A program made the translations under genes and the position numbers. Source: a virus. From it: 64,000 bases of DNA. Of this stretch, positions 36,693 to 61,379 are shown piece by piece (position 1 is the stretch's first letter; each line of letters opens with the position of its first letter). A model generated the notes under the pieces. That model saw nothing but the letters and a program-made list of their open reading frames with translations. It did not search any database and had not been told where the DNA came from. The stretch lies in the IMG/VR virus record IMGVR_UViG_3300047650_000023; one strand, given 5' to 3'.

Positions 36693-38000
36693 TTGATACC
36701 TAAAAATGGATTATATTTATCATCTGCCGATTATGAATCGTGGCAAGATTATTTTAGTGGAATAGCAGATAAAGATTACATAAAACCAAGTTGTAATGGA
36801 TGCTGTTCTGACCCTGATTTGAAAGTCAAAAATATAACTTTTGTTGTTACTGAGAGGTGTAACCTTTGTTGCACCTACTGTTACGAGGTTCATAAATCTG
36901 GTGCGGTAATGAGTAAACAGGTTGCTAAAGATGCTGTTGATTTTCTTTTTAATAAAGAAAAAGTTAATGGTTATTATAGTGATGAAATTTCACCTGCTGT
37001 AATATTAGAGTTTATTGGTGGAGAACCATTACTTGAAATTGATTTGATTAATTATATAGTAGAATATTTTAAGTTTAAATCTTTTGAAGCAGGAAGTGCG
37101 TGGGCAACAAATTATGTAATTAGTATTACAACAAATGGTATTTTATACAAAAGAAAAAATGTTCAAGATTTTTTAAAACGTAATAAAGGACATATAAGTA
37201 TAGGTTTAACTATAGATGGGAATAAAGAGTTACATGATTCATGTCGAATTTTTCCTGATGGTAGTGGAAGTTATGATATAGTTGAATCAGCCGCAAAAGA
37301 GTGGATAAAATTTAATAATCATCCACAAACAAAAATAACTTTATCTCCGTATAATATTTCTTATGTTAATGATGCTTTAAAAAACGTATGGAATATCGGA
37401 ATAACAGGAGCATTTACTAATTGTGTTTATGAAGAAGGTTGGACAATAGAACATGCTAAAATATTTTATTCAGAATTAATTAAATTAGCAGATTATCTTT
37501 TAGAGAACGAAAATTATTCTAAATATTACACTTCTTTATTTGATGAATCTATAGGAAAACCACTTACAGAAGATAGAAACTGGTGTGGCGGCAATGGCAA
37601 AATGTTAGCTATAGGTACAGATGGTAGATGCTTTCCATGTATTAGATTTATGAAATATTCATTAAATACACCTAATCGTAAAGAAAAGTGTATAGGAAAT
37701 ATTTATAATGGTCTTGAAAGTAAAACTAAAAATGTATGGTTATGTGAGTTAAAAAAAGTAACAATGTCAAGTCAGTCAAATGATAAATGTAATAATTGTC
37801 AAATAGCTTCTGGATGTTCTTTATGTACTGGTTATAATTATGATAAATTTGGTACTCCGAATAAAAGAGCAACATTTATTTGTGATATGCATGTTGCCAG
37901 AGTAAAAGCTAATGTTTATTATTGGAATAGATTATATAAATTATTAGATATCAATAAAGTTTTTATAGATAATATTCCCATGAATTGTGAGGTGATATAA
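36693..38000 (+). CDS. radical SAM/SPASM peptide maturase (CXXX-repeat target type)
   Basis: CNLCCTYC (CxxxCxxC), EFIGGEPLLE, ITTNG, GLTIDG..HD. SPASM region WCGG..CFPC..IGNI..CNNCQIASGCSLC..FIC. Confidence 0.92.
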   Translation: MIPKNGLYLSSADYESWQDYFSGIADKDYIKPSCNGCCSDPDLKVKNITFVVTERCNLCCTYCYEVHKSGAVMSKQVAKDAVDFLFNKEKVNGYYSDEISPAVILEFIGGEPLLEIDLINYIVEYFKFKSFEAGSAWATNYVISITTNGILYKRKNVQDFLKRNKGHISIGLTIDGNKELHDSCRIFPDGSGSYDIVESAAKEWIKFNNHPQTKITLSPYNISYVNDALKNVWNIGITGAFTNCVYEEGWTIEHAKIFYSELIKLADYLLENENYSKYYTSLFDESIGKPLTEDRNWCGGNGKMLAIGTDGRCFPCIRFMKYSLNTPNRKEKCIGNIYNGLESKTKNVWLCELKKVTMSSQSNDKCNNCQIASGCSLCTGYNYDKFGTPNKRATFICDMHVARVKANVYYWNRLYKLLDINKVFIDNIPMNCEVI

Positions 38001-41136: not shown

Positions 41137-41862
41137 ATGAATAAAGAAGTAGAAACTATAATTTTAGATCCGAATAATGTAATTGAGAATTTTAATGAAG
41201 GTGTTCCGTATATAAAATTATATGATAATATAGCTAAAAATCTAAGAAAAATTTTAACACAGACTGAATTTGTAACTGCTTATAGTTTAGTAGATTATAT
41301 AGATGAATTTAATGTAATTAAGTTTGATGAAAAATTTTTATCCATGCAAAATTTATCTGAATATTTAAATGATACATATTCATCTATGAGAAGAATTATT
41401 CCAAGTTTAATAAATAAAAATGTTATTTGTAATTATTACATTGAAATCTATGATAACAAATATACAAAAGCATTTATATTAAATCCTTCTATAGCAACAA
41501 AAGAAAATTATAATTCTAAATATAAAGAGTTATTTGAAAATCCTAAATTAGTTGAAATAAATCATGCTATGTATTCAAATAATTCAGATAGAAGTACACC
41601 AGAATATCGTCAATGGATACAAGACTCATTAGACCGTGATAATTATACTTGTCAATGTTGCTGTTCTACAGAAAATTTAGAAGTACACCACATTTTGAAT
41701 TATGCACAATACAAAGATTTGAGGACTAATTTAGATAATTCAATTACATTATGTCAATGTTGTCATAGTCCTATGATTAAAGGTTCATTTCATAATATAT
41801 ATGGAACTAAAAATAATACAAAAGAGCAGTTGGATGAATACTTAGGACAAGCCAAAAAGTAG
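41137..41862 (+). CDS. RepL-like wHTH fused to HNH endonuclease
   Basis: PYIKLY..FILNPSIA N-domain. EYRQW..RDNYTCQCC..LEVHH..ITLCQCCH C-domain. Confidence 0.8.
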   Translation: MNKEVETIILDPNNVIENFNEGVPYIKLYDNIAKNLRKILTQTEFVTAYSLVDYIDEFNVIKFDEKFLSMQNLSEYLNDTYSSMRRIIPSLINKNVICNYYIEIYDNKYTKAFILNPSIATKENYNSKYKELFENPKLVEINHAMYSNNSDRSTPEYRQWIQDSLDRDNYTCQCCCSTENLEVHHILNYAQYKDLRTNLDNSITLCQCCHSPMIKGSFHNIYGTKNNTKEQLDEYLGQAKK

Positions 41863-43141: not shown

Positions 43142-43927
43142 ATGGCAAATAAATGTTTTTATGTCTATAAGTTTTTAGATGATAATAATAATATTATCTA
43201 TATTGGAAAAGCGAAAAATTTAAACCATAGAATAATAAATCATTTTGGAAAGTTTGGGCATTTACCTAAAGAATGTTATAAAAATATTTCTAAAATAGAA
43301 TATTGTATTTTTAATACTAATACTGATATGTCTATATTTGAAATTTATATGATAAATAAATATCGCCCAATTTATAATATACACTCTAAATATAATGAGA
43401 ATATTAATAATTGTATATTTCAATTATAAGAACCTATTTGGAATAAATATATAAAAGAAGATAAAAGAAAAGTTAATAAACATAAAATTATTAATAAACG
43501 AAACATAAAAGTAATTTGTCTTACAACAGGTTTAATCTTTAATTCTTTATCAGATGCTAATAAATATTATAATATAAAAAGTCATAACGCAGTAAATAGT
43601 GTTTGTCAAGGGAATTCTAAGTCTGCTGGTAAAAATCAAATTACAGGTGAAAGATTGTATTGGGCTTATTATAATGATTATTTATCTGGGAATTATAGTA
43701 TATACAATAAATGTTTTAAAATTATATGTTTAAATAATAAAATGATTTTCAATAATTTAGAAGATGCTAAAAATTATTTTAATTTAGATAATGTCACTAG
43801 AATTTCGGAATGTTGTCATAATAAAAGTAGATACGGAGGTAGAGATCCAAAAACAAATGAAAAGTTACAATGGATGTTTTATAATGATTATTTAAAATTA
43901 AACAATCAAAATAATAAAATAGCATGA
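43142..43927 (+). pseudogene. GIY-YIG endonuclease with NUMOD1-like repeats, in-frame TAA at 43427-43429
   Basis: YVY..IIYIGKA..R..H and FEIYMI. Same frame continues KVICLTTGLIFNSLSDA.. into track ORF 43655. Confidence 0.75.
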
Positions 43928-43977: not shown

Positions 43978-44243
43978 TTACGATTTTATTTTCATTTCAA
44001 TATATCTACTAGAGCCATCACAATGCCCTACAATTGTTTAAATATAAATACTAATAACTATAGCAAAAATGTATTTATACTAGCCTAGTCGTAAAATTAA
44101 ACGTATAGGAGTATATTTATATATACAAATCAGTAATTAATATTATTTAAACAAACAATCTTCTATTTTTTATATCTTATATATTCAGTAAAAATTGATA
44201 ATAATATCAACATCAAAATAAAATTTATAAAGAAGGTGATGCC

Positions 44244-44405
44244 ATGAACACAAATAGAATACCCAATAGATTAATCGGTGAGAAATCTCCTTATCTTTTA
44301 CAACATGCTTATAATCCTGTTAAATGGTTTCCTTGGGGAGATGAAGCTTTTAATAAAGCAAAGCAAGAAGATAAACCGATTTTCTTATCTATTGGGTATA
44401 GCTAG
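44244..44405 (+). CDS. phage-borne 53-codon 5' fragment of a host YyaL-like thioredoxin-domain gene (not in track)
   Basis: [63 protein letters not shown]. Candidate promoter TTGATA-18-TAAAAT at 44195-44224. Confidence 0.85.
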
Positions 44406-44408
44406 TTT

Positions 44409-44456
44409 GGTTACTATAATGTACCTGCCACTGGTGCCATATCGGCTAAAGTAACC
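44409..44456. mobile_element. putative attP of the serine integrase (48 bp, central TG at 44432-33)
   Basis: GGTTACT/AGTAACC terminal IR symmetric about CAC-TG-GTG. Core ACCTGCCACTGGTGCCAT encodes TCHWCH. Overlaps integrase stop. Gene strands converge here. Confidence 0.75.
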
Positions 44457-45960
44457 TTTTATAGACAATTTCTAATATGGTTTCGGTTTCGTTACATATC
44501 CAAATAATTTTATTAACTATAGATTTATATAATTGATTCCTTTTTTGGGGTGTATCTGCTAAAGATATATCATTAACAAACTTTTTTAAATTGTTAATAT
44601 CTTCTTCGTAATTATAATTTGACGTAGCTTTTAATTGAATATTTAGATCATTGATTTCTTTCCTAATCAACTTAATTTTTTTGTTCCATTTTTCTTTTCT
44701 TAATCTCCATTCTTCTTTATTATAATCTCCTATTTCATACATTTCATTAACTTTATCAAGAGCTTTTAAATATTTATCGAGTTCATTTGTCTTACTTAAT
44801 ATATTATCTTGAATAATTTTAATATCTTCTGTATTATCAAAATTATTTTGCAAAGAATAAATGCTTAAATATTGTTTAACTTTATTTATCACTAATTCTT
44901 CTAATGTTTTTTCCATAATTCCTTTGTTAATGCACTTATTTCCGTATGGATCTTTAAACCAACATGGTTTCATTAATACATTACCATTTGGTTTAGTAAG
45001 AAAACTATGGGTATGACCACATCTTCCACACTTTATTAAGCCACTAAAAGCAAATACTGATTGTTTTGTTCTTGATGGCATTTTATTATTATCTAATATT
45101 AATTTAAGAATTTTATCATGTTCAGATTGCGTTTTTACTGGATCATGGCAATTTTCAATAATAATCCATTGGTCTTTTGAATTTTTATGAAGTTGTTTAG
45201 CGTTAGGTTTTTTTGTTTTATGACCATCTCCAATAGATTTATTACTTATTATTTTTCCTAAATGAGTTTCGTCTACCAATAATCTGGAAACAGTCAAGTT
45301 ATTCCATTTCATATGTCTTGGAGATAAAATATTTTGATTATTAAGAATGTTAGATATTTGAGTTGTTGAATTTCCAGATATATATAATTCTATGATTTGT
45401 CTATAAACTTTAAGTTTTTCATCATTAATAACAAGTCCTTTTTCATTATATTTATCTTTGTATTTTTCATATTCATATGGATATGGTGGTGTTCCATTAG
45501 TCCAATTACCTCGTCTTGATCCAACCATTTTACCTTGTTTAAATCTTTTAGAAATCATTTTATATTCTTGTCGCGCAAATAACCCCTTAAAATCAGCATA
45601 TGTATCATCTAAATCATTATTTAGATCATATACTTTTTCAGGGGTTATTATTAAAGTATTAGATTTTTGAAATGCTTTTTTAATTCTATCTTGTTCTCCT
45701 AAGTCACCACGTCCCAAACGATCATAATCAACGCTACATACAGCATCATATACCCCTGCTTCAACATCTTTTAATAATTGTGTCATTTTTGGACGCATAT
45801 CAATACTATCTGAAGTTCCCACTTCTGCGTATTCTACATATTTAAAATTATTTTTAGTACATAAATCTGTTAAAATAGTTCTATGTTTCATTAAATCATC
45901 TTCATTATCTGCACGAGATTTTCTAATATATAAAGCTACAAATTTAACGTTATATTCCAT
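44446..45960 (-). CDS. large serine recombinase (phage integrase)
   Basis: YIRKSR (nucleophile Ser), DRLGR, GTPPYPY, zinc ribbon CGRCG..C..C, coiled coil. ATG 45960 follows AAGGA SD. Confidence 0.92.
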   Translation of the reverse strand: MEYNVKFVALYIRKSRADNEDDLMKHRTILTDLCTKNNFKYVEYAEVGTSDSIDMRPKMTQLLKDVEAGVYDAVCSVDYDRLGRGDLGEQDRIKKAFQKSNTLIITPEKVYDLNNDLDDTYADFKGLFARQEYKMISKRFKQGKMVGSRRGNWTNGTPPYPYEYEKYKDKYNEKGLVINDEKLKVYRQIIELYISGNSTTQISNILNNQNILSPRHMKWNNLTVSRLLVDETHLGKIISNKSIGDGHKTKKPNAKQLHKNSKDQWIIIENCHDPVKTQSEHDKILKLILDNNKMPSRTKQSVFAFSGLIKCGRCGHTHSFLTKPNGNVLMKPCWFKDPYGNKCINKGIMEKTLEELVINKVKQYLSIYSLQNNFDNTEDIKIIQDNILSKTNELDKYLKALDKVNEMYEIGDYNKEEWRLRKEKWNKKIKLIRKEINDLNIQLKATSNYNYEEDINNLKKFVNDISLADTPQKRNQLYKSIVNKIIWICNETETILEIVYKRLL

Positions 45961-45993
45961 ATTATTTAACATCCTTATTATTAGTATGGTTCT

Positions 45994-46858: not shown

Positions 46859-47341
46859 TTATTTAGTCTCTTTTTTTGTTGTTGAACCAAAACCACCTGT
46901 ACGTTTAACGTCTGTATTACCACTATCTGCTACAAGGTAATTAATAAACATTCCTTGACCTATCTTGTCACCTGCATTAATTATGTATGGTGTATCTCCT
47001 AGATTTAAAAGTCTAAATCCTATATTTCCATCATTACTTTCATTTGAATAATAATCACTCTCGATCCAACCTTGAATATTAGCAATTATAACAGGTTGTT
47101 TACCCATAGAACTGCGTACATTAAGTAATAATGCTTCATTTGGGAAAAAGTATGATTTAACATCTGTCCAAATCATTTGATTTTTATTAGGCTGAATTAT
47201 AACATCAATAGGTGAAAAGAAATCATATGCTATTGAATGTTCTGTTGCTCTTTGTGGAATTGTAATCTCACCTACTGTTTTACGAAAATCATCTGATACT
47301 ACTTCAAAACCTCTTGCTTTATGAATAGGTCTTCCCATCAA
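46859..47341 (-). CDS. dut: trimeric dUTPase
   Basis: RATEHSIAYDF, RSS, GWIESDYY..NDGNIG, GDKIGQG, RTGGFGST. Confidence 0.92.
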   Translation of the reverse strand: MMGRPIHKARGFEVVSDDFRKTVGEITIPQRATEHSIAYDFFSPIDVIIQPNKNQMIWTDVKSYFFPNEALLLNVRSSMGKQPVIIANIQGWIESDYYSNESNDGNIGFRLLNLGDTPYIINAGDKIGQGMFINYLVADSGNTDVKRTGGFGSTTKKETK

Positions 47342-47985
47342 TTATTATCTCCTTTAAATTTTAGTTTATTATATATAGGTACTAACCAACTACCAAAACA
47401 GTTTCCTATTGTAACTACTACAATAAATTTGAGTGCTTTTAAAGAAATAAGTGATAATCCATTCATCATACCGAAATAAAACATATCTGCAATACAGTGT
47501 TCAAATTTACAAAGAATAAACACGGAAACACATAAAAATACTCCAATATATTTTCCTATATCAGATTTATTATTTTTAAAATTATCAACTGCTATATACA
47601 TTAACAGTCCACAAAAGAATGCCAAAATTAATGTAGAATATATCGGCTGTATTAATTTAGCATTACATAATGTCGTTGCTTTAAGTGCCAAATCAGGTCT
47701 AATATAATATAAACCTTGACAATATAAATCTGTTCCAAATAAATTTCCAAACCATATAATAACAAGACTAATCATATAATTAGGTTTATTATATAACAGA
47801 TATCCCACTTTACCTGTGAATAAATTAAATTGAAATACTAAAATTACGAATAATCCTATACCAAATAATAGTGATCCAATTACATGATTGTCGGTGGACA
47901 GATAAACTGTTCCACCAATACTAATCATAATACCTGCTATAATAGCTGAAATAAACGTTCTGAGATAGATTTTTAATTGTTCCAT
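47338..47985 (-). CDS. formate/nitrite transporter (FNT) family channel
   Basis: AIIAGIMISIGG, LFTG, GNLFG, LAFFCGLLM, FEHCIADMF, GNCFG. Confidence 0.88.
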   Translation of the reverse strand: MEQLKIYLRTFISAIIAGIMISIGGTVYLSTDNHVIGSLLFGIGLFVILVFQFNLFTGKVGYLLYNKPNYMISLVIIWFGNLFGTDLYCQGLYYIRPDLALKATTLCNAKLIQPIYSTLILAFFCGLLMYIAVDNFKNNKSDIGKYIGVFLCVSVFILCKFEHCIADMFYFGMMNGLSLISLKALKFIVVVTIGNCFGSWLVPIYNKLKFKGDNN

Positions 47986-60055: not shown

Positions 60056-61069
60056 TTAACTTGCTAATTGGTCTTCGTTATGTAATTGCAAATATTCATC
60101 ATAATACATCCAAACCAATGGTGTCCCATCTGGGAGTTTTCCTACTGATTTCTGTTTTCCTTTACAACAATTTTGAATATTATTAATATTATATTTTTCT
60201 GACGCTTCTTTGGTAGTATTAAATATTTCATTAGTAGTAATACAAATTACTTTTTTTATATGATTATTTTTATATGTTTTTTTATCATTACCTACTTTCA
60301 AATACTCACTATAATACATCCATTGTAATAGCTCACTTGTAATCGGGTGCTTACCACAAGATTTTCTTCGACCATTACAACATGCACAAATACTACTATA
60401 ATCTATATTATATTTCAGACTAGCTTCTTTTTCTGTATTAAATATTTCTTTTGTATTAATACAAACAATTGACTTTTTATTAAAACTATCTTTCCCTGTA
60501 AATAATCCATAAATATCTTTATTCCAAGGAATACAACCTTTTTTATTTTCACTCATTTTTTCTTTAGATTCATCACTCATGTGTTTTCCGAACCAATAAG
60601 AATTTTTACTTTTTAATATTGCATGATTATTTTTAATCTTTTCGATTGATTCCTTTGTATGGTGTCTTCCATACCACGATGAATTAATTCCACTATATTT
60701 ACCTTTCCTTGTTTCACTTATTCTATTATAAATATTTTTAATTTCATCATCTGTTTTACCTAATATTAAATTTCCACCATCTCCACCAGAAGCAATATTA
60801 TAATAGTCATTTGACTCAGTAGCATTGTGATTTTTTATGTATTCTATTTCTAATTGATTTAATTCTTCTTTAGAATAAGCTATTGAGAGTATTTCACGAA
60901 TAAAGTTTTCTTTACCATATTTGATTATCGCACGTTTTAAGTGTTTTCCACTTCCCAAATATGTAATCCACGTATTAGATATATCAAATTTCTTTTGACC
61001 AATATACTTTTTACCATTGATTAAATTAGTTGTGATATAAATAAATCCATAAGGATCTTTTACTTCCAA
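60056..61069 (-). CDS. free-standing GIY-YIG homing endonuclease with NUMOD3/NUMOD1-like repeats
   Basis: YGFIYITTNLINGKKYIGQ, YLGSG, GRHHTKES, FGKHMSDESKEKMSE, VICITTNEIFNT. TTG start 8 nt after GGAGG. Confidence 0.9.
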   Translation of the reverse strand: MEVKDPYGFIYITTNLINGKKYIGQKKFDISNTWITYLGSGKHLKRAIIKYGKENFIREILSIAYSKEELNQLEIEYIKNHNATESNDYYNIASGGDGGNLILGKTDDEIKNIYNRISETRKGKYSGINSSWYGRHHTKESIEKIKNNHAILKSKNSYWFGKHMSDESKEKMSENKKGCIPWNKDIYGLFTGKDSFNKKSIVCINTKEIFNTEKEASLKYNIDYSSICACCNGRRKSCGKHPITSELLQWMYYSEYLKVGNDKKTYKNNHIKKVICITTNEIFNTTKEASEKYNINNIQNCCKGKQKSVGKLPDGTPLVWMYYDEYLQLHNEDQLAS

Positions 61070-61076
61070 TATTTTA

Positions 61077-61097
61077 TCCTCCCTGATCAGAGGAGGT
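61077..61097 (-). promoter_or_regulatory. hairpin occluding the SD of the GIY-YIG gene
   Basis: Minus strand CCTCCTCT-GATC-AGGGGAGG. Confidence 0.6.
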
Positions 61098-61379
61098 GTG
61101 TACACACATTTTAACTTGCAAGTTCTCCTTAATACTATCCTTTCTTAAAATTTAATATTAATTTATTATAGTACCCAATCGTCTTCAATATGTTCGCAAA
61201 TTCTATAATGATTTCTATCGTCTTTAATAAATTCTGCCATAACATTATCAATCTTAACAAGTTGATAATTACTCTTTATAAACTTCCTTACATGCTTTCT
61301 ACGTGAATTATAACTAAGGCTCATTACTTATTTCTCCTTTAGTTTTAAAATGTGAATCAACTACCAATTTGGTAGTATA

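Follow-up and report, generated by a model that had tools for sequence, protein, structure and literature searches.

A widespread arrangement in which the attachment site of a large serine recombinase adjoins a copy of the 5' end of its target gene, yyaL

Introduction

Elements that integrate by a large serine recombinase (LSR) may sit inside a coding sequence and restore the interrupted gene when they excise, as SPbeta does in spsM, skin in sigK and A118 in comK. To our knowledge, none of these elements carries a copy of the gene end that it displaces. The attachment sites of one such recombinase have been modelled: for the LI/A118 integrase, the zinc-ribbon-domain (ZD) motif is placed at approximately 16–24 in attP, and is shifted inwards by 5 bp in attB (PMC3783163).

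The dusA-associated integrase islands deal with their target in a different way. They use tyrosine integrases, integrate in the 5' part of the gene and supply a new 5' end, which is fused in frame to give one continuous open reading frame (ORF), while the old 5' end stays behind at the island's outer edge; the replaced segment includes a β-strand that is needed for the fold (Farrugia et al., 2015; PMC4482086). Judged by analogy of arrangement, these islands are the closest functional counterpart of the locus described here.

We have analysed a stretch of 64,000 nucleotides of viral DNA (IMG/VR record IMGVR_UViG_3300047650_000023), called the window below, following up an earlier note made from its sequence alone. 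The window contains a copy of the 5' end of yyaL beside the attP of an LSR, an arrangement that is widespread among mobile elements and apparently undescribed so far. Literature searches found nothing on yyaL or DUF255 as an integration target, and no recombination assay for this LSR clade. Genomes and loci are referred to by our own handles (G and L numbers).

The attachment site in the window

Full-length YyaL (DUF255) proteins have about 680 residues, and consist of a thioredoxin-like domain with a CHWCH motif followed by an (alpha/alpha)6 domain. The features of the window that bear on this protein are as follows.

44195..44224, plus strand: promoter-like candidate TTGATA-18-TAAAAT upstream of the N-copy, from a consensus scan
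44231-44239, plus strand: Shine-Dalgarno sequence GAAGGTGAT of the N-copy, read from the sequence
44244-44405, plus strand: ORF of the yyaL 5' copy (N-copy), with ATG at 44244, 53 codons (44244-44402) ending in ...FLSIGYS, and TAG at 44403-44405
44403-44422, plus strand: 20 nt, TAGTTTGGTTACTATAATGT, read as the N-copy stop codon and the distal part of the left (P) arm of attP
44409-44456, no strand: attP, a 48-bp imperfect inverted repeat with GGTTACT at 44409-44415 and AGTAACC at 44450-44456
44423-44440, plus strand: 18-bp core ACCTGCCACTGGTGCCAT, codons T-C-H-W-C-H, 11/18 G+C, common to host yyaL
44432-44433, no strand: inferred crossover dinucleotide TG, bases 1-2 of the Trp codon, at the symmetry centre of attP
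44446-45972, minus strand: LSR (integrase) of 508 aa, its stop codon (44446-44448) inside the right (P') arm

The N-copy ORF matches the Pfam profile PF03190 (Thioredox_DsbH/DUF255) with an E value of 1.5e-20, but only over positions 1–47 of 163, and the CxxC codons lie outside it. The ORF is a fragment of the YyaL family, and not a member protein. The CxxC codons are found in the core, which reads ACC TGC CAC TGG TGC CAT in the window, and which was recognised as common to hosts by comparison with 45 intact host yyaL genes. No other part of yyaL was found in the window by tblastn. Comparable Shine-Dalgarno sequences, of the type GGAGGTGAT, stand ahead of the N-copies in L001 and L002. The promoter candidates from the consensus scan are not above chance in this AT-rich DNA. 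What the earlier note had described here stands: a Shine-Dalgarno-led YyaL N-terminus closed by a stop, a gap of 20 nt including that stop between Ser53 and the TCHWCH codons, whose exact deletion restores the frame, and a 48-bp site that overlaps the integrase stop.

The 508-residue product of the adjoining gene has the three domains that define an LSR of approximately 450–550 residues, in a single protein: PF00239 Resolvase (E 1.7e-17), PF07508 Recombinase (5.2e-14) and PF13408 Zn_ribbon_recom (1.2e-8). The YxRxS motif and S19 of its catalytic region are invariant in 29 relatives, and it has 372 homologues at E <= 1e-50. As a single-protein query of IMG/VR it gave no confirmed relative, whereas an alignment of N-copies used as the query did find relatives. 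Homologues that are 31–47% identical to it adjoin an N-copy in seven IMG/VR contigs (six distinct sequences) and in L001. The LSR gene is either convergent with the N-copy, as in the window, or directly upstream of it in the same direction.

The three-domain architecture is that of the Listeria A118/LI model, SPbeta SprA, phiC31 and Bxb1, and the A118/LI type of system likewise has an attP of about 50 bp, with imperfect inverted arms and a central dinucleotide, and a target inside a protein-coding gene. Unlike in those systems, the first 53 codons of the target, as a selected, translated copy closed by a stop, lie immediately ahead of the left arm of attP in the window, and attB is the coding segment of an active-site CxxC, conserved across classes of Firmicutes.

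Upstream of the site are tape-measure, tail and head-decoration genes, a GH25 lysin and GIY-YIG/HNH endonucleases, and downstream are a dUTPase and NrdG/NrdD. Since phage DNA is present on both sides, and no yyaL remainder in the window, the window represents the unintegrated form of a large temperate phage, as the earlier note had concluded. An LSR identical to that of the window is on record in a contig of 187,759 bp (~188 kb). Contigs of this kind are often cut from host genomes, and the site might on that account be a prophage junction (attL or attR), or else an assembly artefact, rather than an attP. We regard this as extremely unlikely: besides the two phage flanks and the missing remainder, the right arm mirrors the left one and is not a continuation of yyaL, and independent IMG/VR contigs share the layout.

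It may be added that the phage carries a gene of the formate/nitrite transporter family next to NrdG/NrdD and the dUTPase, a radical-SAM gene, and several genes of homing-endonuclease type, with HNH, GIY-YIG and LAGLIDADG-like matches. These genes are at 47338-47985 (minus strand), 36693-38000 (plus strand), 41137-41862, 43142-43429 and 60056-61105.

Geometry of attP and attB

Sites were aligned on the TG of the Trp codon. In the window, GGTTAC lies 23–18 bp from the central TG on both the left and the right arm. The attP of the G311 element, rebuilt from its attL and attR, is 50 bp long and has GGTTA at 23–19 on both arms. In host yyaL the motif is GGNTA, formed by the Gly-Tyr codons of IGYS, and it is found at 18–14, both in 40 host B arms and in the attL of G311; on the right host arm (B') the likeness to the ZD motif is weak, at 3 of 5. 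Other subfamilies show the same 5-bp shift with ATTG. The site in the window is thus of the kind expected of an LSR attP, an imperfect inverted repeat of about 50 bp with a central dinucleotide, adjoining the integrase gene; its ZD motif is 5 bp further out than that of attB, as in the LI/A118 model (PMC3783163).

Because GGTTAC is mirrored in the right arm and is shifted by 5 bp relative to the host GGNTA, the 20 nt, which the earlier note had called an unexplained insert, are explained, on this alignment, as the N-copy stop codon plus the distal P half-site with its ZD motif.

The host attB segment consists of ...ATTGGNTAYTCN, the same six codons as in the core of the window, and then GTN ATG.... 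Its central part, ACNTGYCAY TG GTGYCAYGT, is quasi-palindromic and invariant across hosts, and is thus a natural LSR target. The attL/attR pairs of relatives place the switch between host and element DNA inside the shared segment TTGGTG, and the symmetry of the site would put the exact cut at TG. The relatives together provide a set of naturally paired LSR attP and attB sites, all on a single quasi-palindromic target of deep conservation, and their arm motifs follow the 5-bp rule. Such a set should be of use in understanding and engineering integrase specificity.

A TTAG-like element 12–15 bp from the centre is the source of many further in-frame stops. The P' arms have the same element, which is probably a recognition feature too. 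An ATG that recurs out of frame, 13 nt to the left of the centre, might be taken for a translation signal; this was rejected, since the P' arms have it too, and it probably belongs to the integrase motif. The first stop codon is the only part of the insert with no integrase explanation. It stands directly after Ser53 in 28/28 distinct inserts (the first set examined), and at a variable distance from the centre, the inserts being 14–54 nt long and in all three frames.

A stop directly after the last sense codon, followed by a short non-coding gap, recalls the take-off site of T4 gene 60. The earlier note had accordingly listed a recoding or RNA-processing event among its options. Ribosomes would bypass the insert, or the 20 nt would be removed from the mRNA, to give full-length YyaL from attR; the restoration of the frame by excision of exactly 20 nt would fit. 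Translational bypass depends on a conserved gap between take-off and landing codons that match. Neither feature is seen here: the take-off codon in the window is AGC (Ser), which does not match the TGT before ACC, and the conservation of the insert in relatives, when checked, proved to be confined to the LSR arm motifs, and these recur as mirror images in the P' arm. Together with the variable length and frame of the inserts, many of which have extra in-frame stops, this contradicts the idea, and we give it hardly any credence.

Selenocysteine or pyrrolysine read-through of the ORFs that end in ...IGYS was also rejected, given that TAG, TAA and TGA are interchangeable in this position and are followed by more stops.

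Distribution of the arrangement

The 53-residue peptide was compared with proteins of similar length, giving 816 clusters. Among the best 120 of these, 100 end exactly at IGYS, and about 14 run on as TCHWC with a short foreign tail. The stop after Ser53 is retained in 100 of about 104 element-type clusters. The remaining four or so read past Ser53 (IGYS-W-R-G..., IGYS-C-D-I...), apparently by loss of the stop, for example by TGA becoming TGG. Hundreds of puzzling annotations of a 'DUF255 domain-containing protein' of 53–54 residues are explained in this way: they belong to attR junctions of a single mobile-element family, or to the scars it has left. Lentibacillus cibarius and Ruminiclostridium herbifermentans, for example, have a 53-residue ORF, a stop, a few bases and then the remaining 626–634 codons of yyaL. 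Sporomusa and Anaerocolumna likewise include strains with an attR.

In IMG/VR, the N-fragment is found on 12 contigs. Eight of them have the layout of the window (IGYS, stop, 15–41 nt, TCHWCH core, inverted arms); another two, at contig ends, are left junctions, and the last two are intact genes. In 400 genomes of Clostridia species, PF03190 is present in 117, and in 18 of these 117 yyaL is split exactly at IGYS|TCHWCH with an N-copy, as confirmed at the DNA level. This accounts for the 'broken' yyaL in about 15% of the sampled Clostridia species that bear the gene.

One more Clostridia genome, G206, has a junction at the same site of yyaL and no N-copy (L065:760-1150, minus strand). This attR-like junction has a core that encodes TCRWCH, with CGC in place of CAY, and apparently belongs to a different element that uses the same target.

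A search that started from the LSR found 58 relatives in species genomes, ranging from Oscillospiraceae to Sporomusa, Alicyclobacillus and Lentibacillus. A yyaL N fragment lies within 2.5 kb of the LSR in 42 of the 58, these including 28 attR, 5 attP-like and 4 attL sites. The pattern is far beyond chance; phage contigs of IMG/VR and many bacterial genomes have the same order of N-fragment, stop, insert and core beside a homologous LSR.

The earlier note had placed attB in the CHWC codons of a host yyaL gene, with a central TG, and had predicted the products of the two junctions. The attL/attR pairs of relatives (G311, G232, G180 and G264) bear this out. Both junctions of one element were identified in G311 (approximately 17.5 kb apart), G119, G232, G180, G264 and G040. 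In the lysogens of relatives, attL has the host N-terminus followed by TCHWC and a short tail, and attR has the element 5' copy, a stop, the insert and the host remainder. The closest relative of the window N-copy (L081, 91% identical in amino acids) agrees, being an attR that consists of the LSR, N-copy, TGA and a GC-richer host remainder, with an insert of 20 nt that includes the stop. For the window phage itself, searches of IMG/VR, species genomes and JGI metagenomes with the exact P-arm and P'-arm patterns gave no lysogen, attL or attR, and no GenBank phage matched the region in a DNA search at near identity. Its integration is therefore inferred from relatives.

This distribution invites comparison with the dusA islands. 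In both cases the insertion is in the 5' part of a conserved gene, the replaced segment has a β-strand essential to the fold, and the element supplies a new gene end while the displaced one stays at the far junction. In the six genomes with both junctions, the element's copy is at attR and the host end at attL. Unlike the islands, the elements described here use an LSR, and their copy ends in a stop and is separated from the remainder by a recombinase arm of 14–54 nt, so that at best a two-piece protein would result, and not a continuous ORF.

The N-copy is borne by the element and under selection

The N-copies are well conserved at the protein level. Their dN/dS is 0.08, and that of intact host genes 0.07. 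Most pairs of copies are saturated at synonymous sites, with dN at about 0.15; in unsaturated pairs dN/dS is 0.13, and is alike with or without a restart codon in the insert. The window N-copy and its closest relative differ by 8.5 synonymous and 8.5 non-synonymous changes (dN 0.08, dS 0.40). None of 60 distinct element copies has an internal stop or frameshift, though the copies were detected by motif and strongly decayed ones could escape. The host-like dN/dS, the absence of broken copies among the 60 and the exact end at Ser53 together indicate protein-level selection in the element lineage. Purifying selection on the peptide, as suggested in the earlier note, is thereby borne out, and the decay that had been named beforehand as evidence against it was not seen.

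The copies also travel with the element, as judged by their sequence relationships. Three species with host remainders only 61–69% identical share one N-copy at 100% nucleotide identity, and in two more groups of elements the copies are 87–94% identical against 65–71% for the remainders. The nearest neighbour of an element copy is another element copy with a frequency of 0.80, compared with 0.50 for shuffled labels. Element copies tend to have WFPW, and hosts WYPW.

Within one genome, the host N-terminus at attL and the element N-copy at attR are only 67–77% identical. Recent capture from the host and gene conversion are on this ground both rejected as the cause of the conservation.

Temperate elements commonly capture flanking host DNA, and the copy could be a neutral relic of aberrant excision, carried along or repeatedly refreshed, and devoid of function. 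That an element can use the same site with no copy (G206) is in keeping with this. A neutral relic would hardly have remained intact in 60 of 60 cases while synonymous sites became saturated, with dN/dS at about 0.1, nor have kept its stop after Ser53 in all distinct inserts of the first set and nearly all element-type clusters; refreshment sits badly with the 23–33% of nucleotides in which copies differ from the N-terminus of the host in the same genome. The copy moreover persists across LSRs that are only 31–47% identical. We therefore consider a neutral relic very unlikely.

A possible two-piece YyaL

We hypothesise, and think it reasonably probable, that the window carries the attP of a yyaL-targeting LSR and that the selected N-copy complements the host remainder as a two-piece YyaL. 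In the proposed mechanism, the LSR would recombine the 48-bp attP with attB, namely the T-C-H-W-C-H-V codons of host yyaL, the GC-rich core of 18 bp being the segment common to the two. The ZD motif would have to be 5 bp further from the centre in attP than GGNTA is in attB. A P-type arm cannot encode the native residues too, and for this reason the element's own 5' copy has to sit outside the arm, closed by a stop. After integration the host 5' end would stay at attL as ...IGYSTCHWCH plus two residues, and the phage promoter, Shine-Dalgarno sequence and 53-codon copy would become joined via the P arm to the host remainder at attR. The peptide would then give the remainder two parts of its thioredoxin-like domain, the N-terminal helices and the central β-strand.

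Structure prediction is consistent with this proposal. The model of a complex between the window N-fragment and residues 1–125 of the L001 remainder has an ipSAE of 0.88 (best control 0.01), a mark reached by 58/80 solved complexes and 2/110 mismatched pairs, but since the two chains are halves of a fold that has been solved as a single chain (3IRA, 7TKV), this success may reflect that likeness only. The contacts agree between runs to at least 99%, and the partner pLDDT is at least 88. In the model, residues 45–53 of the fragment form a strand between two strands of the remainder, central in the thioredoxin-like sheet. The conservation pattern of the fragment, which equals that of the intact family, also argues that it folds in the context of YyaL. 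The existence of an element at the same site that has no N-copy counts against complementation.

The difficulty lies in the second piece. In the window, the reading frame runs TAA TGT ACC into TCHWCH, with a stop two codons upstream of the Thr codon ACC and no start, and the single ATG of the arm is in another frame, so that the remainder could start only at Val59 or Met60. In a lysogen of the window phage, translation of the remainder would thus begin at these host codons, after the CxxC; GGTG lies 7 nt upstream of the Met60 ATG, and is a weak Shine-Dalgarno sequence at best. The CxxC would be carried instead by the host peptide at attL (...IGYSTCHWCHIG*). Restoration by the window phage would be partial or altered, and excision would be needed to give the fully native gene. 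In the largest subfamily, TGA stands directly before the Thr codon. With such a stop, or with no restart, a second piece that bears the CxxC is often impossible, and the rebuilt protein would be without its most conserved motif.

Some inserts do create a clean second ORF, beginning M-S-(T/S)-C-H-W-C-H, M-P-T-C-H-W or TTG-T-C-H-W. The first of these occurs in L001, L002, L047 and L093 with three different Ser codons, which looks like selection for a native-like second piece in at least some lineages.

A designed restart codon was considered as a general feature of the inserts and rejected. In-frame restart codons are present in 8/16 attR inserts, where shuffled sequences give an expected 4.9 (P = 0.08, not significant), and in 1/12 attP forms.

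The main alternative is a gene switch, in which integration inactivates yyaL, only excision restores it, and the 53-residue fragment does something else. It could drive transcription or ribosomes into the remainder and the genes downstream, solubilise a misfolding-prone remainder, or have some other partner. Genes that are interrupted by LSR elements and restored on excision are an established class, and the elements described here resemble skin/sigK, SPbeta/spsM and A118/comK ('active lysogeny') in that an LSR element lies inside a coding sequence which precise excision remakes; they differ in that nothing seen here links their excision with a developmental programme. A switch would also account for the many attR junctions, and the window attP, that provide no in-frame start before the CxxC, and for the intact host remainders, which are open frames of 627–716 residues in all split genomes, as expected if excision matters. 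Against it, the fragment keeps the invariant residues and the dN/dS of intact host YyaL N-termini, as expected if it folds within YyaL, and such conservation is not needed in a mere driver of transcription or translation. The modelled position of the fragment as a central strand of the sheet formed by the remainder, and the inserts that recreate M-S-(T/S)-C-H-W-C-H, point the same way. We regard a switch as rather unlikely.

Fragment complementation to give a two-piece YyaL is the best reading, if an incomplete one. It is a puzzle that a fragment of a host protein should be maintained by the element, with an obligatory stop and under purifying selection like that in hosts, when a full second piece is often impossible. 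A bolder and more tentative suggestion, of which we are doubtful, is that LSR elements make the host enzyme into a two-subunit one, here a variant that lacks the redox site while the element is resident, with the native enzyme back on excision. This would apply to a large LSR clade across Firmicutes, comprising phages, conjugative elements and small islands, with the element keeping the 53-residue subunit. If it were true, the element would rewire its target and not merely repair it.

Variant arrangements

Several genomes have unusual forms of the locus. G288, a metagenome-assembled genome of Anaerofustis sp., has two N-copies on a contig of 220,859 bp, at L061 (attR, ~94.8 kb) and L077 (~143.2 kb). 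The left flank of this 48-kb element is an attP-like site (N-copy, stop, P arm, core and P' arm), and not an attL. The two N-copies are 97.9% identical, and the DNA upstream of each is unrelated (31%). Either a converted attL or homologous insertion at an older 'scar' would fit this pattern.

The chromosome of G308 (L078, which covers 20 kb upstream of an apparently intact yyaL) has three separate modules of N-copy, stop and attP-like site, located 10.8–19.1 kb upstream of that gene, with right cores of the TGG TGG CAA type. A single similar module is found about 1 kb upstream of an intact yyaL in G248 (L079), and G359 (L073) has an attL-like relic about 2.7 kb upstream of an intact yyaL. These modules look like tandem accretion, or relics of past elements.

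In Ruminiclostridium herbifermentans (G001, L002:1-6200), PF03190 matches nothing in the complete genome but the split yyaL, and hence no displaced host N-terminus remains. Genes for Abi_2 and HEPN proteins lie upstream, and there is a clean ATG-S-T-C-H-W-C-H restart. The locus looks like a fixed scar, or a decayed element that carried defence genes.

Finally, one subfamily has a small GC-rich hairpin, of the type TAGCCCTGCGGGGCTA, directly 3' of the N-copy stop. Its members are L112, L113, L119, L120, L122, L123, L126, L136 and L138, from Alicyclobacillus, Ferroacidibacillus and Bacilli, and L013:4139-4180. The insert before the TCHWCH core is 41–54 nt long in this subfamily, and 78 nt in L113. 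The hairpin might act as a terminator, or be a structured element that separates the copy from the P arm.
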